This document shows, one piece after another, positions 23,152-42,628 of a stretch of 64,000 bases of DNA. Origin of the DNA: Spirochaetia bacterium (GTDB taxonomy: Bacteria > Spirochaetota > Spirochaetia > WTKD01 > G963693115). Each line of letters opens with the position of its first letter. Position 1 is the stretch's first letter. The notes below the pieces were generated by a model. That model saw only the letters and a list, made by a program, of their open reading frames with translations, searched no databases and was not told the DNA's origin. The DNA is taken from contig OZ245332.1 in assembly GCA_965226065.1 (NCBI GenBank), positions 809,651-873,650 of the forward strand, written 5' to 3'. A program made the translations under genes and the position numbers.

Positions 23152-23306
23152 GTTTTAAGCACTAAAACACCATGTAATACATGACAAAATTGTAATGTAT
23201 TTTAGGTGAGAAAAGGCTTGAAAAAAAGAGTAAATGTACCATTATGTATATAGGTAGAAGTTTGTTTTAATCCTTAAAAAACTTTTACGTAGTACAGGAG
23301 TAATTC
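23152..23306 (+). promoter_or_regulatory. Conserved 5' expression module, copy A (promoter, inverted repeat, RBS) of the variable lipoprotein family
   Basis: The ~155-bp block CACTAAAACACCATGTAATACATGACAAAATTGTAATGTATTTTAGGTGAGAAAAGGCTTGAAAAAAAGAGTAAATGTACCATTATGTATATAGG...ACAGGAGTAATTC-ATG recurs about 5 times in the window. It carries TTGAAA/TATGTA-like hexamers, a 7-bp inverted repeat AATACAT-N14-ATGTATT, and AGGAG 8 nt before the ATG. Confidence 0.55.
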
Positions 23307-23925
23307 ATGACACATAAGAAACCTATATATATATATATATATATATATACTCATTACGATAGCATTAGTAAGCTGTGAACCCGACAAAGTACTATACAAA
23401 GTAATTCCACAAAAAGCAAAAATTATAAAGTCCTCCTTTGAAAAAGAAGCAGTATTCCTGAAATGGGATGTAAAGAAGCTAAAAGAAGAGAAGGTAGCAG
23501 CCTATGGAATATCGTATGGCATCGTGAATGGAAAGACGCTTAAAAAGCGAGAGGTAGTACCAAAGTTCATGGAAGCAGAAGGGTTCACGATACGCAAACT
23601 AGAAGAAGGAATACAGTATTGGTTTAAGGTGCAGGCAATCTACGAAGAATTTTCAGGACCGTGGTCAGAGAAAGCAGAAGGGATAACGGGTAAGCCACAG
23701 CCACCGGTAAATTTTAAGGTAAAGAAAAACACGGAAAAGGCAAAATGGTTTGTCAATGTATCATGGGAAAATAACCCATTGAATGATGAAAGAAAATTAA
23801 ATATAGAAGAATATAGGGTAAAGTGCTGGGACAGCAATAACCCTACAAGTAAATATGAAAAGACATTTTCATCTTTACTGTGGATAATGTACTATTCTGT
23901 ATACTTATCAATCAATAAAACATAA
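23307..23925 (+). CDS. Variable surface lipoprotein, N-terminal module copy A (phase-OFF at the TA tract; truncated after FN3-like domain)
   Basis: After the TA tract the frame ...ILITIALVSCEPDKVLYKVIPQKAKII...EVVPKFMEAEGFTIRKLEEGIQYWFKVQAIYEEFSGPWSEKAEG... is open to 23925. It diverges from the full-length paralogue after KYEKTFS and runs into the upstream region of the next gene. Confidence 0.55.
23324..23349 (+). repeat. (TA)13 tract inside codons 6-14 of lipoprotein copy A
   Basis: Counted directly. ATG at 23307, CCT at 23322-23324, then 26 nt of TA, then CTCATTACGATAGCATTAGTAAGCTGT. The signal peptide frame is +1 relative to the ATG, so this copy is OFF. Confidence 0.9.
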
Positions 23926-23957
23926 ATAAATATAATTAAAAAACAAGGAGAAATACT

Positions 23958-24734
23958 ATGAAAAAAATATATACAACAATACTAATTATTGCCTTAGCTT
24001 TATTCATCTCATGCGATGAGAAGAAAGCCGAAGATGATATTAAAAAAGCATTTACAAAGATTACCGATAAAGCGGGAGATGTAATAGACGCCGTAGACAA
24101 GACAACACCGAAGCCGAAAGGAAGCGGAACGCTTACGAATACCGAAGGTGAAGAAGCAGAAGACGAAGAGGCAGAAAGTGAAGGAGTTGAAGAGCCAGAA
24201 GACACACTAACACTAATAAAACCCGTACTAAACCGTGAAAATGCACCGTGGAGCAGAAGAATTGTATTTGCGAAAATAGCACAGCATACCTACAGATTAA
24301 AAGAAGAAAAAACAGGAGTAGCACTTACGGAGTATAACAGGGATATAATGCAAGTAACCGCCACGCAGTCCGCACAAAATGTAATCGTAGTCGCCACGTT
24401 TGACGGTAAGACTTCAGAAAGTAACCCTATTGAGTTTACAAGAATACCAGGCAATACCCTAAGCTTTGCACAGGCAAAACGAACAGAAAACGCATATACT
24501 ACCGAAAGCTATACCCAAGCAGCTACTAAAGGTGATACAGTTGCAGGAGATACCAGAAATATACAATATAGCATAAACCCTACAGGTGAAGGTGTTACCA
24601 TCGATAGCAGTAGCGGAGAGGTTACCATTCAAAGAGGCTCGGACCCAGCGGGAGACTATACTATTACCGCAGAACTTCCAGAAGATGAAAAATATACAAG
24701 AGCCACCGCAACATACAGCCTTACCGTTGAGTAG
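23958..24734 (+). CDS. Small surface lipoprotein paralogue (signal peptide, acidic linker, one Ig-like repeat, conserved C-terminal domain)
   Basis: MKKIYTTILIIALALFISC lipobox. Repeat core ATQSAQNVIVVATFDGKTSESNPIEF. C-terminal GDTRNIQYSINPTG...SSSGEVTI...YTITAELP..EKYTRATATYSLTV is shared with the 25645, 40429 and 41292 genes. Confidence 0.75.
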   Translation: MKKIYTTILIIALALFISCDEKKAEDDIKKAFTKITDKAGDVIDAVDKTTPKPKGSGTLTNTEGEEAEDEEAESEGVEEPEDTLTLIKPVLNRENAPWSRRIVFAKIAQHTYRLKEEKTGVALTEYNRDIMQVTATQSAQNVIVVATFDGKTSESNPIEFTRIPGNTLSFAQAKRTENAYTTESYTQAATKGDTVAGDTRNIQYSINPTGEGVTIDSSSGEVTIQRGSDPAGDYTITAELPEDEKYTRATATYSLTVE

Positions 24735-24846
24735 CGTAACACATGAAAAGCAAAGACATGAAAGGCTTAGAGGCAGATTACAAAATACATAAACGACTTG
24801 AAAAAAAGAAAGTAAAAGACTTAAAAAACTTGGCTAAAGAGGAAAG

Positions 24847-25005
24847 GAAAGCAAAAGACGCTAAAACACCATGTAATACATGACAAAATTGTAATGTATT
24901 TTAAGTAGAAAAAAGCTTGAAAAAAAGAGTAAATGTACCATTATGTATATAGGTAGAAGTTTATTTTTATCCTTAGAAAACTTTTACGTAGTACAGGAGT
25001 AATTC
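24847..25005 (+). promoter_or_regulatory. Conserved 5' expression module, copy B
   Basis: Near-identical to 23152-23306. Confidence 0.55.
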
Positions 25006-25622
25006 ATGATATATAAGAAACCTATATATATATATATATATATACCCTAATTACGATAGCATTAGTAAGCTGTGAACCCGACAAAGTACTATACACAGTA
25101 ATTCCACAAAAAGCAAAAATTATAAAGTCCTCCTTTGAAAAAGAAGCAGTATTTCTGAAATGGGATGTAAAGAAGCTAAAAGAAGAGAAAATAGCAGCCT
25201 ATGGAATATCGTATGGCATCGTAAATGGAAAGACACTTAACAAGCGAGAGGTAGTACCAAAGTTCATGGAAGCAGAAGGGTTTACGATACGCAAACTAGA
25301 AGAAGGAATACAGTATTGGTTTAAGGTGCAGGCAATCTACGAAGAATTTTCAGGACCGTGGTCAGAGAAAGCAGAAGGGACAACGGGCAAGCCACAGCCA
25401 CCGGTAAATTTTAAGGTAAAGAAAAACACGCTAGGGACAAAATGGTTTGTAGATGTATCGTGGGAAAATAACCCATTGAATGATGAAAGAAAATTAAATA
25501 TAGAGGAATATAGGGTAAAGTGCTGGGATAGCAATAACCCTACAAGTAAATATGAAAAGACATTTTCATCTTTACTGTGGATAATGTACCATTCTGTCTA
25601 CTTATCAATCGATAAAGTATAA
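25006..25622 (+). CDS. Variable surface lipoprotein, N-terminal module copy B (phase-OFF; truncated)
   Basis: Downstream frame TLITIALVSCEPDKVLYTVIPQKAKII...MEAEGFTIRKLEEGIQYWFKVQ... is open to 25622. It has the same truncation junction as copy A. Confidence 0.55.
25023..25044 (+). repeat. (TA)11 tract in lipoprotein copy B
   Basis: ATG at 25006. 22 nt of TA follow, then CCCTAATTACG, which is 2 nt longer than the CTCATTACG of the other copies. The lipoprotein frame is therefore +2, so this copy is OFF despite the same n as the ON copy. Confidence 0.9.
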
Positions 25623-25644
25623 GTAAAACAAAGGGAGAAATACT

Positions 25645-27006
25645 ATGAAGAAACTATATACAACAATACTAATTATTGCCTTAGCTTTGTTCATTTCATG
25701 CGATGAAAAGAAAGCAAAAGATGAAATTACAAAGGCACTTGATAAAGCGGTGGACGCGGTAGATAAGACAACACCGAAACTAACTAAACCCGTACTAAAT
25801 GCTACCCGTGTGAGAGTAGGAACAGCGGCTACATTCCCTAAAGTAGCAGGGTATACCTACACCTTAAAAGAGAAAAAAAGAGGAGTCAGAATAAGCGAAG
25901 GTACAAGTAACACAATGCAAGTCACCGCTACACAAGCAGCTAGCGGTGTTGTTGTAGTTGCGACTAAGGACGGTAATAGCATAGATAGCGAGCCTATAGA
26001 ATTTGTTATTATTGAGTTAACGAAACCCGCAGTAAGTAGCTACCGTGTGAGAACGGTACAAGTGGCTACATTCCCGAAAGTGTTAGGACATACTTATGAA
26101 TTGAAACAAGCTATAAGCGGTGTAAGCCTTGAGGTATCAGATGAGAGCATGGGACGAGTAACCGCTACACAAGCAGCAAGCAATGTAATCATAGTAGCAA
26201 CGCTTGACGGTAACACCGAGGAAAGCGACCCTATAGAATTTGTACTTATTGAGTTAATAAAGCCAGCAGTAAGTAGCAACCGTGTAAAAGTAGGAACACC
26301 GATTATACTTACAAAAGTAGAAGCACATACCTATAAATTGAAAGAAGAGGTAAGCGGCGTAAGTCTTGAGGTATCAGATGAGAGCACGGGAGAACTCACA
26401 GCCACGCAGTCCGCACAAAATGTAATTATAGTAGCCACGCTTGATGGTAATACCGAAGAAAGCGACCCTATAAATTTTATTGAGGTAATAAAACCCGCAG
26501 TAAGCGAAATTTCAGCACCCTGGGATACAGTAATTACATTCCCGAAAGAACCAGAGCATACTTATGAACTGAAAGAAGAAAAAACAGGAGTCACATTAAG
26601 CGAGGCTACCAGTGACACAATGCAAATCACCGCTACACAGTCCGCACAAAATGTAATTATAATTGCAACGGTTGACGGCTTAACTGAAGAAAGCGACCGT
26701 ATTGAGTTTAGAAGAAAGCAGGGTAATGCTTTAAGCTTTGCACAACCAAGACGATCGGAAAAACGAAGAACTACTTTTACGCAAACCGCTAGTAAAAGCG
26801 GAGCAGTTGCAGGAGATACCCGAGACATAACATATAGCGTATATCCTAGTGTTTTCGGTGTTAGTGTTGATAGCAGTAGCGGAGAAGTTGCAGTAAATTT
26901 TATTGCCGACTATAGACGGTATACTATTACCGCACAACTTCCAAGAACCGCAAAGTACGAAAGAAGCACCGCAACATATACACTTGTAGTCCCGAGATCG
27001 AAATAA
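25645..27006 (+). CDS. Surface lipoprotein paralogue with four tandem ~78-aa Ig-like repeats plus conserved C-terminal domain
   Basis: MKKLYTTILIIALALFISC. Repeats KPAVSS.RV..G....TKV..HTY.LK....GVSLEVSDES.G..TATQ.A.NVIIVATLDGNTEESDPIEF occur four times. C-terminal YTITAQLP..AKYERSTATYTLVV. Confidence 0.75.
   Translation: MKKLYTTILIIALALFISCDEKKAKDEITKALDKAVDAVDKTTPKLTKPVLNATRVRVGTAATFPKVAGYTYTLKEKKRGVRISEGTSNTMQVTATQAASGVVVVATKDGNSIDSEPIEFVIIELTKPAVSSYRVRTVQVATFPKVLGHTYELKQAISGVSLEVSDESMGRVTATQAASNVIIVATLDGNTEESDPIEFVLIELIKPAVSSNRVKVGTPIILTKVEAHTYKLKEEVSGVSLEVSDESTGELTATQSAQNVIIVATLDGNTEESDPINFIEVIKPAVSEISAPWDTVITFPKEPEHTYELKEEKTGVTLSEATSDTMQITATQSAQNVIIIATVDGLTEESDRIEFRRKQGNALSFAQPRRSEKRRTTFTQTASKSGAVAGDTRDITYSVYPSVFGVSVDSSSGEVAVNFIADYRRYTITAQLPRTAKYERSTATYTLVVPRSK
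25780..26725 (+). repeat. Intragenic tandem repeats (~234 bp x4) encoding Ig-like modules
   Basis: Seen as repeated peptide blocks in the 453-aa product and as repeated antisense ORF fragments. Confidence 0.7.
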
Positions 27007-27140
27007 TTAAAAGAAAAGCGAAGACATGAAAGACTTAAAGGCAGAAAATCAATCACAAAATGTAATGTAAGGACGAAAAAAAACAACCTTTTTACTGTGA
27101 ATAATCTACCATTCTGTCTACTTATCATAAGTAAATATAA

Positions 27141-27760
27141 TTGAAACACGCAGAGGAACGCGAAGAATATGAATTACGCGTGAAAGCAAGCACAAACACG
27201 GGAGATATTGTGAAGCCGACATTCAGACCTAGTAAAAGTGAGCCATGGGGAACGGATATAAGCTTTGAAAAGCTTGAGGGCTATACGTATGAATTGAAAG
27301 ACGACAAAGGTGGAGCAGTGAGCTTAGACACAAGCAGTGACCCTGCGAGAATAAGTGCGACAGAGTCTGTGAGCGCAGTAGTGATAGAAGTGAGACGTTC
27401 GGGATATAGTGGGAAAGTAGAAAGCGACCCGATTGAGTTTACGAAAAAAGCGGGCAACGGCTTGAGCTTTGTGAGCTCTTCAGAAGAGAAAAGAGTTAGC
27501 ACTGCTTCCGCAACATTTACGCAGAGCGCTACTAACGATAGAGCAGTTACAGGAGATGACAGATCCGTAGTGTACAGCATAAGCCCTACGGGACAAGGTG
27601 CCACGATAAACCCTAGTAGCGGTGAGGTGACAATAACACCAGCGGCCGCAATCAATGGCTTTACCGTTACCGCAACATTACCCGCAAACGCAAAGTATAC
27701 CGCTTCTAACACGGCAACATATACGCTTAATGTAGTGGCTCCACCGGGAACAAGAAAGGT
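27141..27760 (+). pseudogene. Promoterless mosaic fragment of the variable lipoprotein family (internal part of the 718-aa paralogue joined to a C-terminal-domain variant)
   Basis: Begins abruptly at AEEREEYELRVKASTNTGDIVKPTFRPSKSEPWGTDISFEKLEGYTYELKD... This block is nearly identical over ~100 aa to the middle of the minus-strand gene at 34593-36934. It then switches to ...GLSFVSS..ATFTQSATNDRAVTGDDRSVVYSISPTG..SSGEVTIT...YTLNV. It has no signal peptide or module upstream, only the family junction sequence at 27081-27130. Confidence 0.6.
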
Positions 27761-28418
27761 ACGCGTATTGGTATCGTTTAATTATCTTAACTTAATAAAA
27801 GGTAACAAAGGACAAATCTTGTGGATAAAAACAAGTATTATAAATGCGCATGCAGGGTACAGGGTCAGGGTATTCAAAATTATTCAATAATTACAGTGTC
27901 ATATACATGTATGATTATTTATTGTTATTAAAAACTTTATGCTTTAGCTTCGGCTTATAGCAGCTCCGGTATCTAGTCGTGCCGGCAGTATGGAATGCAT
28001 GTAATTTGCAAAATTATTTGCTTTGATTGTCTTTACTTACCCCTTATGAATTTTATAAGATGTGTATTGTATGTCCTAGTATTTTACCACGGTATTATAC
28101 ATGGTGTTTTTTATAGAAAAGGAGCAAAAGTATCGTTGCAAGTGAAAGAGAAATAATACTTACAAAGTTGAGACCTTTTCAATTTCTAACGGCGGAAGAG
28201 GAATTTTGATTTGAACCAATACTTTAACAGATACTATATCTTGAGTAGCACCATGTAAATATTTACTAATAAAATTAGTTAGAATTAACTTTAAATATTT
28301 TAAGGATAATAATTCAATCATTGTATTCAATTGTACTTTTCATCAGACGCTATTAAAGTGTGCATACAATATAATAAAATTACCTTATTTCTAAATAATA
28401 CAAGAGCGGAGTTATTAT

Positions 28419-29714
28419 ATGCTTGATATTAAATACATCGTAAAGAATGCATCTCGTTTTAGTACATCTGCACAGCAGAGAAATGTACGCGACTTCGTAC
28501 CAGAGCTCGTAGGCTTGTACGAAAAGAGTCTCATCATACAACAAGAATTAGAAACACTCTCTCAAGAACGAAACCATGTAGCAAAAGAAATTTCACAAAA
28601 AAAGGACGATGGACGCGCACGCCTTGTAGCACGCGGCAAAGAACTGAAAATGCAAATATCCGAGCATGACGCAGAACTGAAAAAGCTACAAAACGATATT
28701 CAATCGCTTGCCTTACAAATTCCAAACATACACCATCCGTCTGCACCACTTGGAAAAGAAGAAAAAGATAATCTCGTCATAAAAACGCATGGCACTGCAC
28801 GACAATTTTCTTTCACACCTAAAAGCCATATAGATTTGTGTACTGAACTCAATATTGTAGATTTTACCAACGCGACAAAAGTATCAGGACCGAAATTTTA
28901 CTACTTGAAAAATGAAGCGGTGTTATTAGAACTCGCACTTATACGCTTTGGAATTGACATACTACGCGAACATGGCTTTACAATTTTTGAAACACCTGAC
29001 ATTGCGCGCACTTCTATTGTCGAAAGTATCGGGTTTCTTCCGAGAGGAAATGAAAGTAACATTTACAACATTGAAGATGAAGGTACATCTCTTATCGGTA
29101 CGGCAGAAATAACCCTCGGTGGCTATTATGCAGATAGCATTATACCGTTGGAGTTACTGCCTATAAAAATGGCAGGAATTTCGCATTGCTTTCGCCGAGA
29201 ATCAGGTGCAGCAGGACAATATTCAAAAGGACTGTATCGTGTACATCAGTTTACGAAACTGGAAATGTTTGTTTTTTGCCATCCTGATAAATCAGAAACA
29301 ATGCATGAGGAATTATTGACGATAGAAGAACAACTGTATCAAAAGTTAGAAATCCCATACAGAATCGTAGATACCTGCACGGGAGATTTAGGAGCATCCG
29401 CCTACAGAAAATTTGACATAGAGGCGTGGATGCCAGGACGCGGAAAAACCGGCGAGTACGGCGAAATTACAAGTGTATCAAATTGTACCGATTATCAATC
29501 GCATAGGCTTAGTATACGCACACAAGACGAAGATTCCTCACACAATAAAATAAGGATATTTCCTCACACGTTAAACGGCACGGCACTTGCCATACCTCGA
29601 ACGCTTATTGCGATTGTAGAAAATTTTCAAAACGAGGATGGAAGTATACGTATACCCGATGTACTTATTCCTTATTGTGGTTTTTCATCTGTGAAGAAAA
29701 GCCACAATTCGTAA
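28419..29714 (+). CDS. serS: Seryl-tRNA synthetase
   Basis: 431 aa. N-terminal coiled-coil arm plus class II core (motif 2 region FRRESGAAG, motif 3 region). Confidence 0.9.
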   Translation: MLDIKYIVKNASRFSTSAQQRNVRDFVPELVGLYEKSLIIQQELETLSQERNHVAKEISQKKDDGRARLVARGKELKMQISEHDAELKKLQNDIQSLALQIPNIHHPSAPLGKEEKDNLVIKTHGTARQFSFTPKSHIDLCTELNIVDFTNATKVSGPKFYYLKNEAVLLELALIRFGIDILREHGFTIFETPDIARTSIVESIGFLPRGNESNIYNIEDEGTSLIGTAEITLGGYYADSIIPLELLPIKMAGISHCFRRESGAAGQYSKGLYRVHQFTKLEMFVFCHPDKSETMHEELLTIEEQLYQKLEIPYRIVDTCTGDLGASAYRKFDIEAWMPGRGKTGEYGEITSVSNCTDYQSHRLSIRTQDEDSSHNKIRIFPHTLNGTALAIPRTLIAIVENFQNEDGSIRIPDVLIPYCGFSSVKKSHNS

Positions 29715-29728
29715 TATTTCACAAACCG

Positions 29729-30835: not shown

Positions 30836-30917
30836 GAGTAATTGAGAAAAAGCATTGAGACTATGCAGAAAACTCTAAATCTCATCAAGGTTATTTTCAA
30901 TATATTTGATTATATTT

Positions 30918-31626
30918 AGAAGAAGGAGAACCACTAAAAGAAGGTATCAGAGAAGTAGAAAGAGCAGGAAGGTTTTTTCACTATTTCGCTGCAGAAGCAT
31001 TGAGAAACATCGGCGATTTTGTAGACTCAGTTCGTACAGAAGTACAAATAGAAGTATTTAGAGTGCCGGTAGGTACCGTACTTGTTATCACGCCATGGAA
31101 TTTTCCTGTTGCACTCCCTGCATGGAAAATAGCTCCTGCACTTGCCTTTGGTAACAGCGTTATCTTAAAACCTGCTTCCACTACTCCAGCTAGTGCCTGT
31201 GCCTTGGCAAAAATAATTCACGAAGCAGGAGTGCCTGAAGCTGTGTTTCAAATGCTACTCAGCGACTCTGTACTCGGAGAAACATTGGTAAAAAATCCCG
31301 CATTTGATGCAGTAAGCTTTAGAGGATCCTTTGCCGTAGGACGCAATATTGCAAGACTCTCAGGTGAGCTACTACGCCACTTCCAATTAGAAATGGGCAG
31401 CAAAAACGCACTCATCATCCTTGATGATGCCGACATTGATATTGCAGTAGCCTGTGCAATCAATGGTGCCTTTGGTGGTACAGGGCAAAAATGCACTGCA
31501 TCCTCTCGCATCATTGTAAGCGAAGGAATATACAAAACCTTTCTCGAAAAATTCACAGAAGCGGCTTCACAATTTAGGCTATTCGGGAGGTATGTTAGGA
31601 CTAAGCCTATATCCTTTTCATCTTAA
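30918..31626 (+). pseudogene. Aldehyde dehydrogenase family gene remnant (central ~230 aa only)
   Basis: Open frame ...[23 protein letters not shown]...[32 protein letters not shown]...ELGGKNA-like LEMGSKNALII...GQKCTASSR. It lacks the first ~100 aa and the C-terminal catalytic Cys domain end. Confidence 0.6.
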
Positions 31627-31654
31627 AAATACCTCTGATTGTCAGATATCTGAC

Positions 31655-31756
31655 ATGATGGACGAAATAAAACGTATAGTTGATTTGGTGGGAATAGATC
31701 ATGTCGCATTAGGTACAGATATTTGTCAAGGTCGCTCTGTGCAAGAATTAGAATAA
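31655..31756 (+). pseudogene. Fragment resembling the C-terminal end of a membrane dipeptidase (M19)
   Basis: The 34 codons MMDEIKRIVDLVGIDHVALGTDICQGRSVQELE* resemble the IDHVGIGSDFDG region of M19 dipeptidases. Very short, so the call is tentative. Confidence 0.35.
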
Positions 31757-31766
31757 CTGAAGCGGT

Positions 31767-32997
31767 GTGTTTTGGGCAGCAGGAGAACCTATCGCACATT
31801 TTCTCAATCCTCCTCCACTTTTTGGTGTAGAAGGCAAAACGGCAGAAGCTGTTGCCCCCTGCATTAGCACAAAGTTTTATGCACTGGGGATTTTTAGCAT
31901 GGGCTATTGCAGGAACTCTTACTGCCATCGTCATGATGTACTACTGTTACAACAAAAAGTTACCTTTCAAACCACGGACACTTCTCTATCCCATATTTAA
32001 AGAAAAAATAATGACAGGACCCTTAAGTATACTTGTCAATGCAAGTTGTATTATTGCAGTGGTAGCAGGTACCGTAGGTCCAATTGGATTTTTAGGATTA
32101 CAGGTAGGCTATGGCTTGAATAAAATGCTCAATATTCCTAATAATGCTATAACACAATCTGCCATTATATTATTACTCATGATAATTTATGTAAGTTCAG
32201 CCGTCTCAGGAGTTTCAAAAGGTATACAATTACTTAGTAGGATCAATGTTATTATTGCAATTGGATTGACGATTTTCATTGTCTTCTTTGGTAAGGTAGA
32301 ATTTATCGTAGATTCATATTTACAATCCTTCGGATTATATATTTCTGAATTTCTTTCTATGTCGCTTTATAGAGGTGACAGTACATGGTTAAGTTGGTGG
32401 ACAGTTTTTTTCTGGGGATGGTTTTTAGGATACGGACCTTTGATGGCAATTTTTATAGCGCGTATATCAAAAGGTAGAACTATACGAAATGTTATTATTA
32501 CAACTTCTATAATTGGTCCATTGATTATGACATTTTGGTTCACTATTGTAGGCGGAAGTGGTATATTCTTTGAACTTAACAATCCCAATTCTATTGCAGG
32601 AGCATTTGAAGGATTTAATCTTCCTGCGGCACTAATTGCCATAACCACGCAACTTCCATTTGGTACATTACTTACCTATATTTTTATTATTCTCACATTC
32701 ATTTTTGTTGCTACTACTGGCAACTCCATGACATTGAGCATACCCATATGCATGACAGGAGATGAGAATCTTAGCACACTTACTCAAGTATTTTGGGGCG
32801 TTTTTATGTGACTCATGGCAATTGTTCTTGTGCTGATGGGAGCAGGCAGCATATCTGCTTTGCAATCGTTTATTGTTATTACCGCGATACCTGTTTCTTT
32901 GATACTTCTACCTTCGCTATTGCAGAATAATATTTACACCCTATCTTTACTTAATTTCAAAGTAATCAAAATACCAAATACTCGCGGTGATACATAG
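31767..32997 (+). pseudogene. BCCT-family (betaine/carnitine/choline) transporter gene disrupted by frameshifts
   Basis: Three consecutive ORFs in different frames (31767-32000, 31852-32811, 32815-32997) together carry BCCT sequence. This includes the family signature WTVFFWGWFLGYGPLMAIFIARISKGRTIR. Confidence 0.65.
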
Positions 32998-33006
32998 CAT
33001 ATATAA

Positions 33007-34464: not shown

Positions 34465-34592
34465 GATGCAACTAAAATGTAAATTTTCGAGAGTAAAAAT
34501 CTGATTTTTGAAAGAATATTTTGATGTGTAATAAATACTTAACTACTACAAAATAAAAAGTAAAATGTTATCCCCTAAGGCGGACTTGCAAG

Positions 34593-36934
34593 TTAATTGT
34601 ATTTTCTTATGCGATAACAAAGACCCTTTTTCCAATTCCCGTCTCTATGTGTCCCAGTTGCACTGCAGTGATATTCATGCAGTTTTACTGTTATTTTATA
34701 AGATGCTGTACTTTCCGTATACTTCTCATTTTGTTCTTTTTTCGCAGTAATTGTTTCTGTTTTTGATCCTCTAAAAATTATAAGTCGATCCATATCAATT
34801 CTAGAAGATGATGCTGTGTATATAATTCTTCTTTTGTCGCCGGGGATATCTCTGCTTACACGCACCTTTTGAAGCCTTGCTCGTCCAAAAGCGTTTCTGA
34901 TTTTCCCAAACTTTGGCACATTAACTGTTAGCATAAAAGGTCCTGTTTTTGTAAAGAAAAGCGTATCGCCCGTTTGCCTCGTAAACGTTATCGGGACACT
35001 GTCTATGACAGCTTCTTCGTATTTCGAATCTCCAGGTAGTATCGCTTGTACAATTACATTTTCAGCAAACTGATTAGCGGTAATTTTTCCATTGCCTAGT
35101 GTCACTCCAGTATGACGGTTTTTCAATTTATACCTATGCAGCGGTGCAGGGGTAAATGTAATAGCTGTTCCCCACGGCACACTCGTTTTACTGAATATAG
35201 GCTTTGTCGCAGGTCTCGTCTGCTTCGTAAACTCAATCGGGACACTGTCTATGACAGCTTCTTCGTATTTCGAATCTCCAGGTAGTATCGCTTGTACAAT
35301 TATATTTTTAGCAAACTGATTAGCGGTAATTTTTCCATTGCCTAGTGTCACTCCAGTATGACGGTTTTTCAATTTATACCTATGCAACGGTGCAGGGGTA
35401 AATGTAATAGCTGTTCCCCACGGCACACTCGTTCTACTGAATATAGGCTTTGTCGCAGGTCTCGTCTGCTTCGTAAACTCAATCGGGTCGCTTTCTACTT
35501 TCCCACTATATCCCGCACGTCTCACTTCTATCACTACTGCGCTCACAGACTCTGTCGCACTTATTCTCGCAGGGTCACTGCTTGTGTCTAAGCTCACTAC
35601 TCCGCCTTTGCTGTCTTTCAATTCATACGTATAGCCCTCAAGCTTTTCAAAGCTTATATCCGTTCCCCATGGCTCACTTTTACTAGGTCTGAATGTCGGC
35701 TTCACAATATCTCCCGTGTTTGTGCTTGCTTTCACGCGTAATTCATATTCTTCGCGTTCCTCTGCGTATTTATCATCCGCTGCCTTCCTCGCTGTTATCG
35801 TAAATGTATTGCCTACCGCTGCTGCCTCAATGCTCACTTCACCACTACTGCCGTCTATTCTCGCTCCACTGCTACTCGGATTTATGCTGTATCGCACGGG
35901 TGTGTCTTCAGGGTCAGTTTCTGTAATTACATGCGTATATTTGTTTTCATTTGTGTTAAACATGAAATCATGACTTGCACTTTCAAACTTAAATCTATCT
36001 CCCGCTTGCCTCGTAAATGCTATTTCTGCACTTTCTTCTTTTCCCTCATATTCTGTGTGTGTCACTTCTATCACTACTGCACTCACAGACTCTGTCGCAC
36101 TTATTCTCGCAGGGTTATTGCTTATGTCTAAGCTCACTACTCCGCCTTTGCTGTCTTTCAATCTATACTTATGACCTTCAAGCATTCCAAAGGTAATGTC
36201 TGTTCCCCACTGCACACTCGTTTGACTGAATGCTGGCGCTTCTATCGCCTTTGCTGTGGTGCTTCTCCTCTCTACCGTGCTTCTTACTCCTTTGTCTGTC
36301 TCTATGTACAATTCACATATATACTCTTTTCCCGCTTTTAGCGCTAACTCATTCATCTTCATAGAAACTTCTTCTTGTGACGCTTCTTTCTCTTTAGCTA
36401 CCCCTCCTGTCTCATTACACTTCACTTTGTAGCTGTAACGTATCTCTAAGTCTTCGTTCACCTCGTTCTTTTTCCAGCGTAACTCAAGACTTCGTTTGCC
36501 ATCTTTTGTGGGCTGCTTTATTATCTTAAAATCTGTAGGTGGTTCTGGTTGCCCCGTTGTCCCTTCTGCTTTCTCTGACCACGGTCCTGAAAATTCTTCG
36601 TAGATTGCCTGCACCTTAAACCAATACTGTATTCCTTCTTCTAGTTTGCGTATCGTAAACCCTTCTGCTTCCATGAACTTAGGGACTACCTCTCGTTTGT
36701 TAAGAGTCTTGCCGTCTACTATGCCATATGATATTCCATAGGCTGCCACCTTCTCTTCTTTTAGCTTCTTTACATCCCATTTCAGAAATACTGCTTCTTT
36801 TTCAAAGGATGCTTTTATAATTTTTGCTTTTTGTGGAATTACTGTGTATAGTACTTTGTCGGGTTCACAGCTTACTAATGCTATCGTAATGAGTATATAT
36901 ATATATATATATATATAGGTTTCTTATGTGTCAT
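34593..36934 (-). CDS. Variable surface lipoprotein copy C (~780 aa if in frame; phase-OFF at TA tract)
   Basis: ATG at 36934 (MTHKKP...), (TA)12 at 36894-36917, then the signal peptide frame is shifted (offset 41 nt, not divisible by 3). The downstream frame is open to 34593. It carries the FN3-like N-module, Ig-like domains and an internal 83-aa duplication. Confidence 0.6.
34985..35482 (-). repeat. Intragenic ~249-bp direct duplication in copy C
   Basis: TKQTRPATKPIFS(R/K)TSVPWGTAITFTPAPLHRYKLKNRHTGVTLGNGKITANQFA.N.IVQAILPGDSKYEEAVIDSVPI.F occurs twice. The DNA is near-identical. Confidence 0.75.
36894..36917 (-). repeat. (TA)12 tract in copy C
   Basis: Counted on the plus strand between GAG (36891-36893) and GG (36918-36919). 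Confidence 0.9.
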
Positions 36935-37088
36935 AAATTACTCTTGTACTGTGTAAAAGTTTTCTAAGAATTAAAACAAACTTTTACCTACATATATAAT
37001 GGTACATTTACTCTTTTTTTCAAGCCTTTTTTTACCTAAAATACATTACAATTTTGTCATGTATTACATGGTGTTTTAGCGTCTTTAG
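36935..37088 (-). promoter_or_regulatory. Conserved 5' expression module, copy C
   Basis: Reverse complement matches the copy A/B module. Confidence 0.55.
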
Positions 37089-37248
37089 ACATACTGCTTA
37101 TGCTTTTGCCTCTATCATGTCACGGCTGATAGGTAGACAGAATAGGGTATTATCCACAGTAAAATAATACTGAAATATAACACGCTTACATTACATTTTA
37201 CGCTTGCACCTCATCGATGTTTGGACATTCTTTGTCGCTTGTTTTCTT

Positions 37249-40158
37249 TTACCATGCCCATTTCGGCTTATTTGATTTCTGCATTGCGGTTGCACTCATG
37301 AATATGTATTGGGCGTTTCTTCCGCTTTTGTCTACCCAAGCGGTTAAGTCTTGATTGAATGAAGTAGCAAAGTAGAACATATAGCTCATGGCTGTTACAC
37401 TTGATACATCCCAATTATTAAGCGACTGATTGAATGAAGTAGCCTCTCTGAACATATGGCTCATTTCTGTTACACTCGATACAGTCCAATTATTAAGCGG
37501 CTTATTGAATGAGGTAGCATTTTGAAACATACTCCACATTTCTGTTACACTCGATACAGTCCAATTATTAAGCGGCTGATTGAATGAAGCAGCATTGTCA
37601 AACATATGGCTCATGGTTGCTACACTCGATACATCCCAATTATTAAGCGGCTGATTGAATGAAGTAGCATTGTAAAACATACCGCTCATGTCTGTTACGC
37701 TTGAGGTGTTCCATTTGCTAATGTCACCGTTAAAAGTAGCATTGTTATAAAAAAGCTCGCTCATATCGGTTATGTCTGAAGTATCGATGTAGTTTAGATC
37801 TACTTCGTTGCCGTGTGCTCTTATGGCTTGCTTAATTTCGTATATCAATTCTGCTTTAGTTGGGGTTTTGAATTTTGCCACTGTTAGCTGGTATGATGCT
37901 CTTTGTGCTTCGTATTTTGCACTTTGTGCCTTTCTTGCTGTTATTGTAAATGTATTGCCTATCGCTGCTACTGTAAAGTCTACTTTACCGCTTACGCTAT
38001 CTATGCTCGCAACTGCTCCCGTGGGACTGATGCTATATTCGATGTCCCTAGTATCACCGCTTACGCTTCTATCATTAGTAGCAACCTGTGTATAAGTATT
38101 TCCACCTGTTGCATACATGGTATTCTTATTCACGGTTGCAAAGCGGATCGTACTACCTGCCTGCCTTCTAAACTCAATAGGATCACTTTCTACGCTTCCC
38201 GTATAACCTCTACGCTTTGCAACAATAATAATATTTGCTGCTGGCTGTGTTGCTGTTATTTGCCCGGTACTCTTATCAAACGCTACCCCGGTTATAGCTT
38301 GTTTCAATTCATAGCTATGATCCACTACTTTTGTAAGTCTGATAGGTGTACCCCACCTCTCGCTTCTTTTGCTTACCGCTGGTTTTGTAATATCTCCTGT
38401 GTTTGTATTTGCTTGCACTCTTAGCTGGTATGATGCTCTTTGTGCTTCGTATTTTGCACTCTGTGCCTTTCTTGCTGTTATCGTAAATGTTGTCCCTATC
38501 GCTGCTAGTGTAAAGTCTACTTTACCGCTTCCCGTATCGATGCTTGCACCTACTCCCGTGGGACTGATGCTATACGATACGACTCCCGTATCTCCTGCTA
38601 CTACTCTATCGTTAGTAACCGTCTGTGTATGAGTATTTCCCTTGCCGTATTGTACCGCTACATCGATGTTTGCAAAGCGGAGCGTACTACCTGCTTGTCT
38701 TGTAAACTCAATAGGATCGCTTTCTACGCTTCCCGTATAACCTCTACGCTTTGCCACAATAATAATCCTTGCTGCTGGCTGTGTTGCTGTTATTTGCCCG
38801 GTACTCTTATCAAACACTACCCCGGTTATAGCTTGTTTCAATTCATAGCTATGATCCGCTACTTTTGTAAGTCTGATAGGTGTACCCCAGCTCTCGCTTC
38901 TTTTGCTTACCGCTGGTTTTGTAATATCTCCTGTGTTTGTATTCGCTTGCACTCTTAGCTGGTATGATGCTCTTTGTGCTTCGTATTTTGCACTTTGTGC
39001 CTTTCTTGCTGTTATCGTAAATGTCTTGCCGACTGCTCCTAGCGTAAAGTCTACTTTACCGCTTCCCGTATCTACGCTTGTACCTGCTCCCGTGGGACTG
39101 ATGCTATACGATACGACTCCGGTATCTCCTGCTACTACTTTATCGTTAGTAACAGTTTGTGTATGAGTATTTCCGCTTTTTCCATATTCTATCGGTACAT
39201 CAATGTTTACAAAGCGAAGCGTATTGCCTGCTTGTCTCGTAAACTCAATAAGTTCACTTTCTGCACTCCCTGTATAGCCTGTGCGTTTTGCAACAATAAT
39301 AATCCCTGTTACCGGCTGTGTTGCTGTTACTTGCCCGGTGCTCTCATCAAACACTACCCCGCTTATAGCTTGTTTCAATGCGTAGCTATGATCTACTACT
39401 TTTGTAAGTGTAATCGGTGTTCCCCACCTTTCGCTTCTTTTACTTACCGCTGGTTTCTCTATATCATCAAACGCAAGTACTCCGCTTTGCTTTACTTCGC
39501 TTAGCGTTCCTTTATCTGTTTTTACCTGCACACTACAAACATAGTTCACCTTCCCGCTTGTCTCCAGTACTCCTTTTGTAGATACCTTTGTAGGTGCTGA
39601 AAATGTCTTTTCATATTTACTTGTAGGGTTATTGCTATCCCAGCACTTTACCCTATATTCTTCTATATTTAATTTTCTTTCATCATTCAATGGGTTATTT
39701 TCCCACGATACATCTACAAACCATTTTGTCCCTAGCGTGTTTTTATCTACCTTAAAGTCTACCGGTGGCTCTGGCTTACCCGTTGTTCCTTCTGCTTTCT
39801 CAGACCAGGGTCCCGCAAACTCTTCATAGATTGCCTGCACCTTAAACCAATATTGAGTCCCTTCTTTTAGCTTGCGTATTGTAAAGCCTTCTTTTTCCAT
39901 GAACTTAGGCACTACTTCTCGTTTGTTAAGAGTCTTGCCGTCTACTATGCCATATGATATTCCATAGGCTGCCACCTTCTCCTCTTTTAGCTTCTTTACA
40001 TTCCATTTTAGAAATACTGCTTCTTTCTTAAAGGAGGACTCTATAATTTTCGCTTTTTGTGGAATTACTGTATATAGTACTTTGTCGGGTTCACAGCTTA
40101 CTAATGCTATCGTAATGAGTATATATATATATATATATATAGGCTTTTTATGTCTCAT
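37249..40158 (-). CDS. Variable surface lipoprotein copy D, full length and in frame (969 aa): FN3-like N-module, 3x178-aa Ig-like repeats, C-terminal DUF285/BspA-like repeat array
   Basis: ATG at 40158. MRHKKPIYIYIYILITIALVSCEPD... with lipobox LVSC. (TA)11 is in frame. The ORF is continuous to 37249. Confidence 0.85.
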   Translation of the reverse strand: MRHKKPIYIYIYILITIALVSCEPDKVLYTVIPQKAKIIESSFKKEAVFLKWNVKKLKEEKVAAYGISYGIVDGKTLNKREVVPKFMEKEGFTIRKLKEGTQYWFKVQAIYEEFAGPWSEKAEGTTGKPEPPVDFKVDKNTLGTKWFVDVSWENNPLNDERKLNIEEYRVKCWDSNNPTSKYEKTFSAPTKVSTKGVLETSGKVNYVCSVQVKTDKGTLSEVKQSGVLAFDDIEKPAVSKRSERWGTPITLTKVVDHSYALKQAISGVVFDESTGQVTATQPVTGIIIVAKRTGYTGSAESELIEFTRQAGNTLRFVNIDVPIEYGKSGNTHTQTVTNDKVVAGDTGVVSYSISPTGAGTSVDTGSGKVDFTLGAVGKTFTITARKAQSAKYEAQRASYQLRVQANTNTGDITKPAVSKRSESWGTPIRLTKVADHSYELKQAITGVVFDKSTGQITATQPAARIIIVAKRRGYTGSVESDPIEFTRQAGSTLRFANIDVAVQYGKGNTHTQTVTNDRVVAGDTGVVSYSISPTGVGASIDTGSGKVDFTLAAIGTTFTITARKAQSAKYEAQRASYQLRVQANTNTGDITKPAVSKRSERWGTPIRLTKVVDHSYELKQAITGVAFDKSTGQITATQPAANIIIVAKRRGYTGSVESDPIEFRRQAGSTIRFATVNKNTMYATGGNTYTQVATNDRSVSGDTRDIEYSISPTGAVASIDSVSGKVDFTVAAIGNTFTITARKAQSAKYEAQRASYQLTVAKFKTPTKAELIYEIKQAIRAHGNEVDLNYIDTSDITDMSELFYNNATFNGDISKWNTSSVTDMSGMFYNATSFNQPLNNWDVSSVATMSHMFDNAASFNQPLNNWTVSSVTEMWSMFQNATSFNKPLNNWTVSSVTEMSHMFREATSFNQSLNNWDVSSVTAMSYMFYFATSFNQDLTAWVDKSGRNAQYIFMSATAMQKSNKPKWAW
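37280..37770 (-). repeat. C-terminal array of ~6 x 27-aa repeats (FNQPLNNWDVSSVT.MS.MF.NATS), DUF285 / BspA-like LRR type
   Basis: Repeated peptide DISKWNTSSVTDMSGMFYNATSFNQPLNNWDVSSVATMSHMFDNAASFNQPLNNWTVSSVTEMWSMFQNATSFNKPLNNW... Period is 81 bp. Confidence 0.7.
37860..39470 (-). repeat. Three near-identical ~534-bp intragenic tandem repeats (178 aa each)
   Basis: Protein blocks KPAVSKRSE.WGTPI.LTKV.DHSY.LKQAI.GV.FD.STGQ.TATQP...IIIVAKR.GYTGS.ES.PIEF.RQAG.T.RF......TITARKAQSAKYEAQRASYQL.VQANTNTGDIT occur three times. The antisense ORFs 37808-38095, 38369-38632 and 38903-39166 are almost identical. Confidence 0.85.
40120..40141 (-). repeat. (TA)11 tract in copy D (in-frame, ON)
   Basis: ATG first base at 40158. 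First base of CTC (Leu) at 40119. Offset is 39 nt, so in frame. Confidence 0.9.
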
Positions 40159-40307
40159 GCATTACTCCTGTACTATGTAAAAGTTTTCTAAGGATTAAAA
40201 CAAACTTTTACCTATGTACATAATGGTACATTTATTCTTTTTTTCAAGCCTTTTTTCACCTAAAATACATTACAATTTTGTCATGTATTACATGGTGTTT
40301 TAGCGTC
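40159..40307 (-). promoter_or_regulatory. Conserved 5' expression module, copy D
   Basis: Reverse complement matches the module, including AGGAG 8 nt before the ATG. Confidence 0.55.
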
Positions 40308-40428
40308 TTTTTCTTTCCTTTCCTCTTTAGCCAAGTTTTTTAAGTCTTTTGCGTTCTTTCTTTTCAAGTCGTTTATGCATTTTGTAATCTGCCTCTAAGC
40401 CTTTCATGTCTTCGCTTTTCATATTCCG

Positions 40429-41133
40429 TCACCTAGCAAAGTCGTCACTTACAAGTAGTTTGTATGTTGCGGTACTTCGTTCGTATTTCTCGTTTTGCTG
40501 AAGTTCTGCGGTAATAGTATAGTCTCCAGTGTCTGCCTTATCTGCAACTCTAACCTTACCGCTACTGCTGTCAATAATAACACCGTGGTCGGCGGGACTG
40601 ATGCTATATTTTATATTGCGGGTATCTCCTGCAACTGTTCCGCTTTTACTAGCGGTTTGCGTAAAAGTAGCTCTTCGTCTTTCTGTGCGGCTTGCCTGTG
40701 CAAAGCTCAAGGTATTGCCTTGCTTTCTTGTGAACTCAATAGGATCGCTTTCTGAAGTTTTGCCGTCAAGGGTTGCGACTATGATTACATTTTGCGCGGA
40801 CTGTGTAGCGGTGAGTTGCATTGTCTCGCTGCTGTACTCTGTAATTGCTACTCCTGTTTTTTTCTCTTTCAAGGTGTAGGTATGGTCTGGTATTTTTGGG
40901 AATAAAATAGGTTCACTCCACGGTACAAGCTTACCGCTTAGTGCGGGTTTTCGTGCTATATTCGTAAGCGTTCCGCTTCCTTGTTTCTTCGGTGTTGCTT
41001 TATCTGCCACGTCCTCCGCTTTATCCTCTATTTTCTCAATGGCTTTAGTAATATCATCTTCGGCTTTCTTTTCATCGCAAGAGATGAATAAAACCAATGA
41101 AATAATTAGTATTGCGGTATATAGTTTCTTCAT
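40429..41133 (-). CDS. Small surface lipoprotein paralogue (234 aa)
   Basis: MKKLYTAILIISLVLFISC. One Ig-like repeat (ATQSAQNVIIVATLDGKTSESDPIEF). Conserved C-terminal domain (..YTITAELQQNEKYERSTATYKLLV). Confidence 0.75.
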   Translation of the reverse strand: MKKLYTAILIISLVLFISCDEKKAEDDITKAIEKIEDKAEDVADKATPKKQGSGTLTNIARKPALSGKLVPWSEPILFPKIPDHTYTLKEKKTGVAITEYSSETMQLTATQSAQNVIIVATLDGKTSESDPIEFTRKQGNTLSFAQASRTERRRATFTQTASKSGTVAGDTRNIKYSISPADHGVIIDSSSGKVRVADKADTGDYTITAELQQNEKYERSTATYKLLVSDDFAR

Positions 41134-41291
41134 AGTATTTCTCCCTTTGTTTTAATTATACTTTATCGGCTGATAGGTAGATACAATACTACATTATGCA
41201 TAGTAAAATGTTATTGCAACATAACACGCTTACATTACATTGTCTGTCTGCTTTTAAGTCTTCGCTTTTCATATTTTTTTGAGTTTTGCCA

Positions 41292-42092
41292 TTAACTGCA
41301 TGGCCTGTCTCCCGCAAGGTGATGACACACCGCTAGCGTATAGGTTGCGGTAGCTCTTCTATATTTTTCGGTTTGTGGAAGTTCTGCCGTTACGGTAAAC
41401 TTTACATTAGCTGCGCTTTGTGTAAGTGTTACTTCTCCGCTAGCGGAGTCAATTGTTCCACCTCTTCCCGTAGGGTTTATGCTATATGTTACACCTCGGT
41501 TGTCTCCTCTTACCGATGTAGTATGTACTCTAATCGCTTGCGTGTATTTTGATTCTCCGCTTCTTTTTAGAGTTATTCCATTGGCATTGTTAGCAAAGCT
41601 CAAGGTATTACCCTGTATTCTCGTAAACTCAATAGGGTTACTTTCAATGCTCTCACCGTTAAGCGTTGCGACTATGATTACATTTTGTGCGGACTGCGTG
41701 GCGGTGATTTGCATTCTGTTACCGGTAACCTCTGTAAGTTCTACTCCTGTTTTTTCTTCTTTCAATTCATAGGTATGCTCCGCTATTTTCGCAAATATAA
41801 TTATTACGTTCCATGGTGCACTCTCACGGCTTAGTGCGGGCTTTATTAGTGCTTGCGGTGATGTGTCTTCTGGTTCTTCAACTCCTTCACCTCCTGCGTC
41901 TTCACCTTCGGCATTTTTAGGCGTACCGCTTCCTTGTGGCTTTGGGGTTGCTTTGTCCACTACATCTGCCGCTTTATCGGTAATCTCTGTAAATGCTTTT
42001 TTTATATCGTCTTCGGCTTTAGCTTTCTGCTCATCGCATGAGACAAACAAAGCCAATGCAATAATTAGTATTGCTGTGTATATTTTATTCAT
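41292..42092 (-). CDS. Small surface lipoprotein paralogue (266 aa)
   Basis: MNKIYTAILIIALALFVSC. Same architecture (ATQSAQNVIIVATLNGESIESNPIEF ... YRRATATYTLAV). Confidence 0.75.
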   Translation of the reverse strand: MNKIYTAILIIALALFVSCDEQKAKAEDDIKKAFTEITDKAADVVDKATPKPQGSGTPKNAEGEDAGGEGVEEPEDTSPQALIKPALSRESAPWNVIIIFAKIAEHTYELKEEKTGVELTEVTGNRMQITATQSAQNVIIVATLNGESIESNPIEFTRIQGNTLSFANNANGITLKRSGESKYTQAIRVHTTSVRGDNRGVTYSINPTGRGGTIDSASGEVTLTQSAANVKFTVTAELPQTEKYRRATATYTLAVCHHLAGDRPCS

Positions 42093-42120
42093 AGTATTTC
42101 TCCTTGTGTTTTAATTATCT

Positions 42121-42500
42121 TGTTGTTCCTTCTATTTTCTCCGACCAGGGTCCTGAAAATTCTTCGTAGATTGCCTGCACCTTAAACCAATACTGTATTC
42201 CTTCTTCTAGTTTGCGTATCGTGAACCCTTCTGCTTCCATGAACTTTGGCACTACCTCTCGCTTTTTAAGCGTCTTTCCATTCACGATGCCATACGATAT
42301 TCCATAGGCTGCTATTTTCTCTTCTTTTAGCTTCTTTACATCCCATTTCAGGAATACTGCTTCTTTTTCAAAGGAGGACTTTATAATTTTTGCTTTTTGT
42401 GGAATTACTTTGTATAGTACTTTGTCGGGTTCACAGCTTACTAATGCTATCGTAATGAGTATATATATATATATATATATATAGGCTTTTTATGTATCAT
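42121..42500 (-). pseudogene. Truncated N-terminal module copy E (phase-OFF, ~125 codons) fused directly to the upstream region of the 41292-42092 lipoprotein gene
   Basis: ATG at 42500 (MIHKKP...), (TA)12 at 42460-42483 (offset 41, so OFF). The FN3-like sequence runs down to ...EKAEGTTG at ~42125. The conserved upstream element of the small lipoprotein gene follows immediately. Confidence 0.55.
42460..42483 (-). repeat. (TA)12 tract in copy E
   Basis: Counted on the plus strand between GAG (42457-42459) and GG (42484-42485). Confidence 0.9.
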
Positions 42501-42628
42501 GAATTACTCCTGTACCACGTAAAAGTTTTGTAAGGATTAAAAAAAACTTCTACCTATATACATAATGGTACATTTACTCTTTTTTTCAAGTGTTTTTTCA
42601 CCTAAAACACATTACAATTTTGTCATTG
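42501..42628 (-). promoter_or_regulatory. Conserved 5' expression module, copy E (distal end diverges)
   Basis: Matches the module up to ...TTTTGTCAT and then diverges. Confidence 0.45.

Follow-up and report, generated by a model that had tools for sequence, protein, structure and literature searches.

Signal-peptide (TA)n tracts point to an opa-like, probably phase-variable lipoprotein gene family in an uncultured spirochete

Spirochetes are known to vary their surface proteins mainly by gene conversion (vlsE, vlp/vsp, tprK) or by repeats located in promoters. The vlp/vsp and vlsE systems of Borrelia and tprK of Treponema pallidum are built from one expression site and silent, promoterless donor cassettes. 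In Helicobacter pylori, the outer-membrane genes sabA, hopZ and babB belong to the same repeat type as oipA. The Vlp system of Mycoplasma hyorhinis, known from the work of Yogev, Citti and Wise, reportedly switches transcription by means of a poly(A) tract in the promoter spacer. Here, we describe a family of lipoprotein genes on 64,000 nucleotides (nt) of DNA from an uncultured Spirochaetia bacterium (GenBank assembly GCA_965226065.1, contig OZ245332.1, positions 809,651 to 873,650 of the forward strand), in the following called the window. Five loci of this window, A to E, start with copies of the same 5′ module, designated type 1, in which a (TA)n tract lies within the signal-peptide codons. 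We regard it as probable that they represent an opa-like family of lipoproteins made phase-variable by the tracts, whose modules and bodies would in addition be reshuffled by recombination; the switching itself is predicted from the sequence.

The opa genes of Neisseria carry CTCTT repeats in the codons of the leader peptide (PMC3960869); up to ~11 loci occur, and their diversity arises mostly by recombination within one isolate (PMC3960869, PMC3745409). H. pylori oipA has CT repeats in its 5′ region (PMC10564699). Variable lipoproteins of mollicutes combine a conserved signal region with repetitive bodies (PMC12815946), and the DUF285/PARCEL domain is typical of mollicute lipoproteins (PMC2996958). 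For Treponema phagedenis, the account of Mushtaq et al. 2016 given in PMC13474147 describes variable (TA)n in the putative promoters of vpsA and vpsB as well as allelic variants. In the Staphylococcus aureus lpl cluster, the recombining unit is conserved and reaches from the 3′ end of a gene across the intergenic region into the 5′ end of the gene that follows (PMC2568036).

A preliminary description of this DNA had noted five copies of a conserved 5′ block, A and B on the plus strand and C, D and E on the minus strand. Repeat finding and alignment of the window located all five (Table 1) with pairwise identities of 87–96% over the ~525–530 bp common to them; within the window, the type-1 family is restricted to the region of 23–43 kb. 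The length of ~750 bp originally given for the block is approached by A, B and D, which remain alike for ~190 further bases up to codon ~188 (~715 bp in total), but not by C and E, for which the common part of ~530 bp, which starts ~140 nt before the ATG and reaches codon ~125, has to be considered. Each module comprises a promoter-like site, an AGGAG ribosome-binding site (RBS), an ATG, a lipoprotein signal peptide with the lipobox LVSC and an fn3 domain, termed fn3-1 (PF00041, 36 bits in Pfam). The promoter-like site, a consensus match as are all promoters assigned here, reads TTGAAA-16-CATTAT in five of five copies and is located ~80 nt upstream of the ATG. Downstream of the modules, identity between different body types drops to 34–56%. 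These data support the earlier view that the genes form a modular family, whose members combine a common 5′ expression module with differing sequences behind it.

In all five modules, a perfect (TA)n tract starts 17 nt past the ATG; it contains 13 units in A, 11 in B, 12 in C, 11 in D and 12 in E. No other tract of six or more TA units occurs in the window. The preliminary description makes no mention of these tracts. The tract codes for a run of Ile and Tyr residues, which forms the hydrophobic core of the signal peptide (MRHKKPIYIYIYILITIALVSC). As assembled, D is the sole in-frame copy, and its (TA)11 leads into an open reading frame (ORF) of 969 amino acids (aa) starting at the module ATG, in agreement with the preliminary description. 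The ATG frames of A, B, C and E close after 23, 14, 17 and 17 codons, respectively, so that these copies are OFF as assembled. A protein of ~780 aa had also been assigned to C; the assembled sequence contains instead an ORF of 718 aa which begins at an internal GTG and lacks a signal peptide.

The early stop in A, B, C and E is in each case caused by a tract that is off frame. An increase from 13 to 14 units in A gives 206 aa (204 aa with 11 units), and removal of a single unit gives uninterrupted ORFs of 204 aa in B (11 to 10 units), 779 aa in C (12 to 11 units; a lipoprotein) and 127 aa in E (12 to 11 units). Besides the tract, none of the four copies contains a stop codon or frameshift lesion. 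The loci display three sequence properties of simple-sequence-repeat contingency loci with translational phase variation, namely a perfect repeat in the 5′ coding region with a unit that is not a multiple of three, the tract as the sole lesion and a number of units that varies between paralogues and, as described below, between strains.

Among 5.8 billion clustered proteins, the module was present in two genomes only, that of the window (1,849,772 bp) and that of a related strain, the metagenome contig ERZ25067893 ctg27826 (1,800,608 bp). Both are metagenome consensus assemblies, the related contig with ~8x coverage. Database protein P0022 corresponds exactly to the product of E2, a small lipoprotein gene of the window, which ties the database protein set to the window's genome; counts for this genome beyond the 64 kb were taken from protein sequences. 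It encodes at least 17 module-bearing ORFs and ~30 paralogues of the small lipoproteins. The database proteins which begin at the module ATG (P0001, P0006, P0007 and P0017) all read PIYIYIY(I/T), as expected from in-frame tracts, and P0001, P0006 and P0017 are in-frame truncated copies located elsewhere in the window's genome.

For the related strain, 39 kb of the syntenic region were assembled from the loci L001 and L082, and two further loci, L083 and L084, were considered. The housekeeping flanks are 98–99% identical between the strains. The syntenic locus also contains five modules, each with promoter-like site, RBS and ATG. Its ON copy (TA11, 742 aa) is found at the position of D, and its four OFF copies yield ORFs of 204, 633, 1099 and 779 aa upon a change by one unit (two or one for the copy cC). 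Orthologue A carries 12 units in the related strain and 13 in the window, the tract of orthologue C ends as TA12+CTCATT in the window and as TA12+CCCTAATT in the related strain, and orthologue E has 12 units in both. Two full-length paralogues of the related strain (917 and 1019 aa) contain tracts broken by substitutions (CTTATATTATTTTACAC.. and CTTACTATTATTTACAT..); as these tracts are interrupted yet in frame, we read the two genes as locked ON.

The ratio of non-synonymous to synonymous substitution rates (dN/dS) of fn3-1 was 0.05 over 13 copies, with dS values of up to ~0.8. Comparison of truncated with full-length copies gave ratios of 0.06–0.20, and comparison of the three truncated copies among themselves 0.23. 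Such low values point to strong purifying selection on fn3-1 and indicate that OFF and truncated copies have kept their ability to code for protein, which fits part-time expression.

Recombination clearly appears to act on the modules. The orthologous C genes of the two strains have bodies with 99–100% identity and modules with 86–95% identity, and the C module of the related strain matches that of paralogue X in the same genome with 99% identity. In the window, the C module contains a D-like patch spanning 13 consecutive informative sites, and the four-gamete test is failed by 37% of all pairs of informative sites within the module. Comparison with another strain, suggested in the preliminary description as a check, revealed an arrangement that is not static: besides the mismatch between the body and the module of C, the gene content between the conserved flanks differs. 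Gene X, of which the window has a fragment, is intact in the related strain and starts there with a module of its own; an in-frame tract would give 633 aa. The orthologue of module E is 98.95% identical across groEL, purL and the module exactly up to base 42122, past which the related-strain module runs on into a full-length gene with fn3 and DUF285 domains. Furthermore, the purL cluster of the related strain lies ~800 kb from the proS cluster, beside family genes in inverse orientation. The segment 42122–47271 of the window, where purL and groEL stand beside the C/D/E cluster, was compared with L084 1–5148 and L082; the identities of proS and purL were taken from ORF translations and from precomputed Pfam marks on the genes of the related strain. 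The differing position of purL and groEL indicates a large inversion or translocation through the family with a breakpoint at the E junction. No orthologues of D, E2 and E′ with more than 90% identity were found in the related-strain loci fetched.

These observations suggest the following mechanism. The locus would belong to an expanded, lineage-specific family of spirochete surface lipoproteins with bodies made of fn3 domains, Ig/cadherin-like repeats and a DUF285/PARCEL domain. The type-1 module would be a self-contained expression unit, in which a sigma-70-like promoter and an AGGAG RBS precede the ATG and the codons of the lipoprotein signal peptide. Slipped-strand mispairing at replication would add or remove TA units; with 11 (or 8 or 14) units the gene would be translated, and with any other number translation would end after 14–23 codons. 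Each copy would act as an independent ON/OFF switch, resulting in combinatorial expression, and the window would represent a state with D ON and A, B, C and E OFF. In the longer term, modules and bodies would be reshuffled by microhomology joints and by homologous recombination or gene conversion acting between the conserved modules, which would yield truncated modules directly upstream of small lipoprotein genes, and changes in the copy number of tandem repeats would diversify the bodies. The uncultured spirochete would in this way probably control the members of a large family of surface lipoproteins individually.

Several points weigh against this mechanism. We infer switching at the population level from two consensus assemblies, and the lengths of dinucleotide tracts in such assemblies could include consensus errors; long housekeeping ORFs, for example purL with 1295 aa, are intact, which speaks against frequent assembly indels. 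The number of TA units differs in just one of three clear orthologous pairs, and one module copy of the related strain (L083 9717–10339) is decayed, with extra frameshifts. The apparent purifying selection in OFF and truncated copies could also result from gene conversion by functional ones. A PHI-like permutation test did not reveal significant recombination inside the module (p = 0.37), and exchange or conversion of modules is therefore deduced from the pattern of identities between orthologues and paralogues. Variable segments of a body that had been converted into a single expressed gene were not observed. Finally, promoter and terminator consensus matches taken together were not above chance, and the informative part is the one site conserved across all copies.

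The truncated modules of the window are found ahead of small lipoprotein genes, which are headed by a 5′ module of their own, designated type 2, where ~130 nt of conserved upstream sequence precede the signal peptide MKKLYTTILIIA(L/V)ALFISC. In A, B and at least 12 further copies, module codon ~188 meets the type-2 element at its -10-like part, with the microhomology ACATTTT/ATTTTAC (junction J1). On the protein level, A and B share a junction at which ..KYEKTFS is joined to SLLWIMY.., and at least 14 module-bearing ORFs of the window's genome have the same junction (KYEKTFSSLLWIMY). The preliminary description had stated this junction for A and B and had all three truncated modules followed directly by the upstream element of a small lipoprotein gene; this is correct for A and B, but in E only the last ~28 nt of the element, the RBS region, remain. 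Here, as in P0016, codon ~125 is joined straight to the RBS region (junction J2). In C, homology to the other modules fades after fn3-1, and P0004 consists of a type-2 signal peptide, fn3-1 and an immunoglobulin-like (Ig-like) body. The end of fn3-1 (..AEGTTG) is a repeated breakpoint in E, P0016, C and P0004. In the related strain, a 45-aa type-2 stub is joined to a type-1 promoter (L084 15342–15479). Recombination at defined junctions, as initially proposed, is not supported by this pattern: J1 is one junction identical by descent and inherited by at least 14 copies, and the others are varied microhomology joints, some of them dead ends. J1 forms a near-perfect palindrome, GTAAATATGAAAAGACATTTTCATCTTTAC, at 23849–23878 and 25546–25575, for which RNA folding predicted weak hairpins (z = -2.2 and -1.8); it may be a trace of the junction-forming event. 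Rfam matches were not found between 20 and 47 kb, nor tRNA genes in the window.

Table 1. Features of the lipoprotein gene family in the window (positions in the 64,000-nt window; RBS, ribosome-binding site).
Feature	Position	Strand	Promoter-like site	ATG	(TA)n tract	Stop	Description
Module copy A	23152..23925	+	23218-23245	23307	(TA)13, 23324-23349	23923-23925	truncated, J1 junction
Module copy B	24854..25622	+	24917-24944	25006	(TA)11 then CC, 25023-25044	25620-25622	truncated, J1 junction
Module copy C	37105-36521	-	37023-36996	36934	(TA)12, 36894-36917		heads gene C (34593..37105)
Module copy D	40310-39598	-	40247-40220	40158	(TA)11, 40120-40141		heads gene D (37249..40310)
Module copy E	42652-42122 (ORF stop reaches 42115)	-	42589-42562	42500	(TA)12, 42460-42483	42115-42117	truncated at codon ~125, J2 junction at 42122
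Gene C	34593..37105	-					OFF; body with 246-bp tandem repeats
Gene D	37249..40310	-					in frame, 969 aa
Small lipoprotein gene A′	23958..24734	+					258 aa; type-2 signal peptide MKKIYTTILIIALALFISC
Small lipoprotein gene B′	25645..27006	+					453 aa; type-2 signal peptide and four Ig-like repeats of 237 bp
Small lipoprotein gene E2	40429..41133	-					234 aa; complete type-2 upstream element
Small lipoprotein gene E′	41292..42092	-					266 aa; upstream only the RBS region of the type-2 element
Body fragment (3′ end of gene X)	27141..27890	+					joined to type-2 upstream element; without RBS, ATG and signal peptide

The truncated modules may encode short fn3 lipoproteins, as supported by selection on fn3-1; their second fn3 domain is cut short, the truncated ORFs stopping inside it. 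They may also drive or gate the gene downstream, and an influence of their ON or OFF state on that gene is suggested by the arrangement. The stop codons of A, B and E are located 32, 22 and 22 nt ahead of the ATG of A′, B′ and E′, respectively, and no terminator-like site was found on the coding strand between module and downstream gene. As E′ lacks the type-2 promoter region, the promoter-like site of module E is the nearest and sole one available to it. Together with the amplification of the J1 unit to at least 14 copies in the window's genome, this would agree with truncated modules that mainly serve as portable phase-variable leader ORFs and control the gene 22–32 nt downstream via translational coupling or Rho-dependent polarity. 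We consider this a tentative possibility. Against it stands that A′ and B′ retain the -10-like part of their own element and that J1 creates a hybrid promoter-like site, AAGACA-17-GATAAT. RNA folding gave no sign of sequestration of the downstream RBS at the junctions, and since the truncated ORFs are under purifying selection, their protein products are likely to be of importance in themselves. Such a role is compatible with phase variation of the lipoproteins, and both could operate together. The related notion that the type-1 module is a portable phase-variation cassette, grafted whole or truncated before unrelated lipoprotein genes so that its TA state gates the downstream gene, seems unlikely to us.

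In the preliminary description, the family had been likened to the vlp/vsp genes of Borrelia and tprK of T. pallidum. A programmed cassette or expression-site system, with truncated modules and body fragments as silent donors or acceptors and frequent recombination at defined junctions, would be consistent with the different module and body combinations in the two strains, with the proportion of site pairs failing the four-gamete test and with the recurring breakpoint at the end of fn3-1. It could also account for the fragment of gene X in the window, which has a promoter but no start codon and shares 302 bp (27144–27445) with 98% identity with the body of C (35470–35771). However, all copies of both strains have their own promoter-like site, RBS and ATG, and a single expression site does not exist. 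A Pfam scan of the flanking genes between 15 and 50 kb revealed no recombinase gene, nor were an integrase or transposase found in the flanks scanned; the scanned genes are all of housekeeping type (ligA, lipA, prfA, prmC, AhpC, a TPR protein, serS, neuB, groEL and HlyD). The presence of a promoter-like site and a start in every copy, together with the lack of a recombinase nearby, argues against a single-expression-site cassette system, and the resemblance to vlp/vsp and tprK could not be upheld. Furthermore, J1 is identical by descent, the remaining junctions often yield dead stubs, and the length of the TA tract fully accounts for the ON/OFF state. A programmed cassette system is thus improbable.

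We likewise attach little probability to the assumption that the copies are static, decaying paralogues, with OFF copies as pseudogenes or assembly artefacts and truncated modules as deletion debris without a present role. Decay does occur in this lineage, as two metabolic and transport genes are fragmented in both strains (see below), and it is visible in the extra frameshifts of the L083 copy, in the truncated stubs and in truncated ORFs ending within the second fn3 domain; the low coverage of the related assembly would favour artefacts. On the other hand, the tract is the sole lesion in four of four OFF copies of the window and in four of four at the related syntenic locus, over up to 1099 codons, and dN/dS values remain at 0.05–0.23 although dS reaches 0.8. 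Intact long housekeeping ORFs such as purL and the in-frame truncated copies elsewhere in the same genome (P0001, P0006, P0017) also speak against this assumption. Transcriptional slippage or programmed ribosomal frameshifting on the (TA)n tract, for which we know of no precedent, was dismissed because nothing in the data points to it.

Phase variation of the lipoproteins through their (TA)n tracts can be related to several described systems, and the best-supported reading would combine the logic of Neisseria opa and H. pylori oipA with a modularity of the Mycoplasma Vlp type. As in opa, many paralogous surface genes have their own promoters, a non-triplet repeat in the signal peptide would set translation locus by locus, and recombination between paralogues would create mosaics. 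In contrast to opa, the repeat is a TA dinucleotide and not a pentamer, the host is a spirochete, many copies are truncated ORFs ahead of a second gene, and switching is predicted. The likeness is mechanistic only: Opa is an eight-stranded beta-barrel, whereas the proteins described here contain fn3 and DUF285 domains (Pfam, NCBIfam) and Ig/cadherin-like sandwiches according to a structure model. A dinucleotide repeat in the 5′ coding region, with frameshift phase variation of a surface protein, is shared with oipA; the H. pylori outer-membrane genes belong to another protein family and have neither a grafted conserved 5′ module nor tandem arrays.

The similarity to Mycoplasma Vlp, the only close one among the systems put forward in the preliminary description, holds for the tandem array, the conserved 5′ block with promoter and signal peptide, the variable repetitive bodies and the simple-repeat switch, but not for the position of the tract, which here lies in the coding sequence ~80 nt downstream of the promoter-like site and would act on translation. 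DUF285/PARCEL, present in D, is a further trait in common with mollicute lipoproteins, to which the sequences are otherwise unrelated. The inversion switches of M. pulmonis (vsa), M. bovis (vsp) and M. agalactiae (vpma) differ from this family, for which a dedicated recombinase gene was not found within 15–50 kb. As in the S. aureus lpl cluster, sequence conservation extends across gene borders, the 3′ flank of A′ or E2 being conserved through into modules B and D; a simple-repeat switch is present here and is not described for the lpl cluster.

Within spirochetes, the nearest precedent appears to be vpsA/vpsB of T. phagedenis with their (TA)n promoters. Judged by the description available to us, both cases concern antigenic lipoprotein loci of spirochetes with variable (TA)n and strain-to-strain rearrangement; in T. 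phagedenis, as described, the tract is located in the promoter and the locus is small, and our organism is only distantly related to named spirochetes. T. phagedenis itself was considered as the source of the DNA and rejected, as the prolyl-tRNA synthetase of the window has only ~60% identity to that of any represented spirochete. With Borrelia vlp/vsp, vlsE and tprK, the family shares the diversification of a spirochete surface-protein multigene family by recombination, in contrast to which every copy here has its own promoter-like site and start and its state would be set by the repeat tract. What is new are the gene family, the lineage and the predicted translational switch by (TA)n in the signal peptide; the strategy itself is known.

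The in-frame gene D encodes a lipoprotein signal peptide, two fn3 domains, three Ig-like repeat units of 178 aa and a C-terminal DUF285/PARCEL region (PF03382, E = 2.4e-63; TIGR02167, 61 bits at a cut-off of 30; Pfam and NCBIfam). It thereby has the make-up of a DUF285/PARCEL lipoprotein, with a C-terminal PARCEL array behind a lipoprotein signal peptide with lipobox LVSC. Two of the 178-aa units are found in P0007. Tandem repeats of 534–537, 246, 237 and 75 bp occur in D, C and B′. The structure model of E2 (mean pLDDT 80, two domains mostly >90) consists of a disordered tether and two Ig/cadherin-like beta-sandwich domains, with tandem cadherin, titin Ig, SraP and LigA domains as best structural matches. 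Profile searches detected the second domain of E2 also in giant multi-repeat proteins from elsewhere; strong matches were far fewer (34 at E <= 1e-30) and, where traceable, came from the two module-bearing contigs, an origin unconfirmed as the library carries no source information. This domain make-up fits surface adhesin-like lipoproteins, and their exposure on the surface is suggested by the same domains. The motif AAWTGTAATGTA directly precedes the -35-like hexamer in the upstream elements of both module types (positions 23188, 24887, 27058, 37042, 37187 and 40266; six seen, 0.06 expected) and may be a candidate site for a shared regulator or a UP-type site. Locus L084 of the related strain contains two identical tandem type-2 ORFs of 90 aa (7696–7968 and 8086–8358).

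Two genes similar to EcoRI_methylase (PF13651) are located inside the lipoprotein clusters of the related strain. Tracts of (TA)11 (L001 10937–10958) and (TA)12(TG)11 (L082 ~3644–3689) end 5 nt ahead of their called starts, and a type-2 upstream element precedes the gene in L001. These genes may be phase-variable DNA methyltransferases.

The G+C content of the window is ~38%, and the two contigs measure ~1.8 Mb. Searches with the module protein in GTDB representative genomes and with conserved module DNA in JGI metagenome contigs gave no match. The prolyl-tRNA synthetase ProRS is at most 63% identical to that of any of 185,579 GTDB species representatives, the best matches being metagenome-assembled genomes of Spirochaetia (54–63%), which indicates an uncultured, deep-branching spirochete lineage with a small genome. 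The window also contains fragments of an aldehyde dehydrogenase gene (31000–31626; profile positions 114–297 of 461) and of a BCCT transporter gene (31852–32811; profile positions 122–440 of 485). The related strain likewise has both genes in pieces only, which identifies them as real pseudogenes and as a sign of genome decay.

The tracts also have a consequence for annotation. In the output of gene callers, the loci appear as meaningless pieces with an internal GTG or ATG as start codon ('MAAYGISYG..', 'MEAEGF..'), and annotation and pangenome analyses misread them unless the tract is recognised. Should the type-1 module indeed be a portable cassette, this deep-branching, small-genome spirochete would possess a combinatorial switchboard for its surface coat unlike those of Borrelia or Treponema. 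If the tracts switch, at least 17 independent dinucleotide switches in lipoprotein signal peptides would vary the surface coat of this organism, and an opa-like contingency system would be added to the spirochetes.

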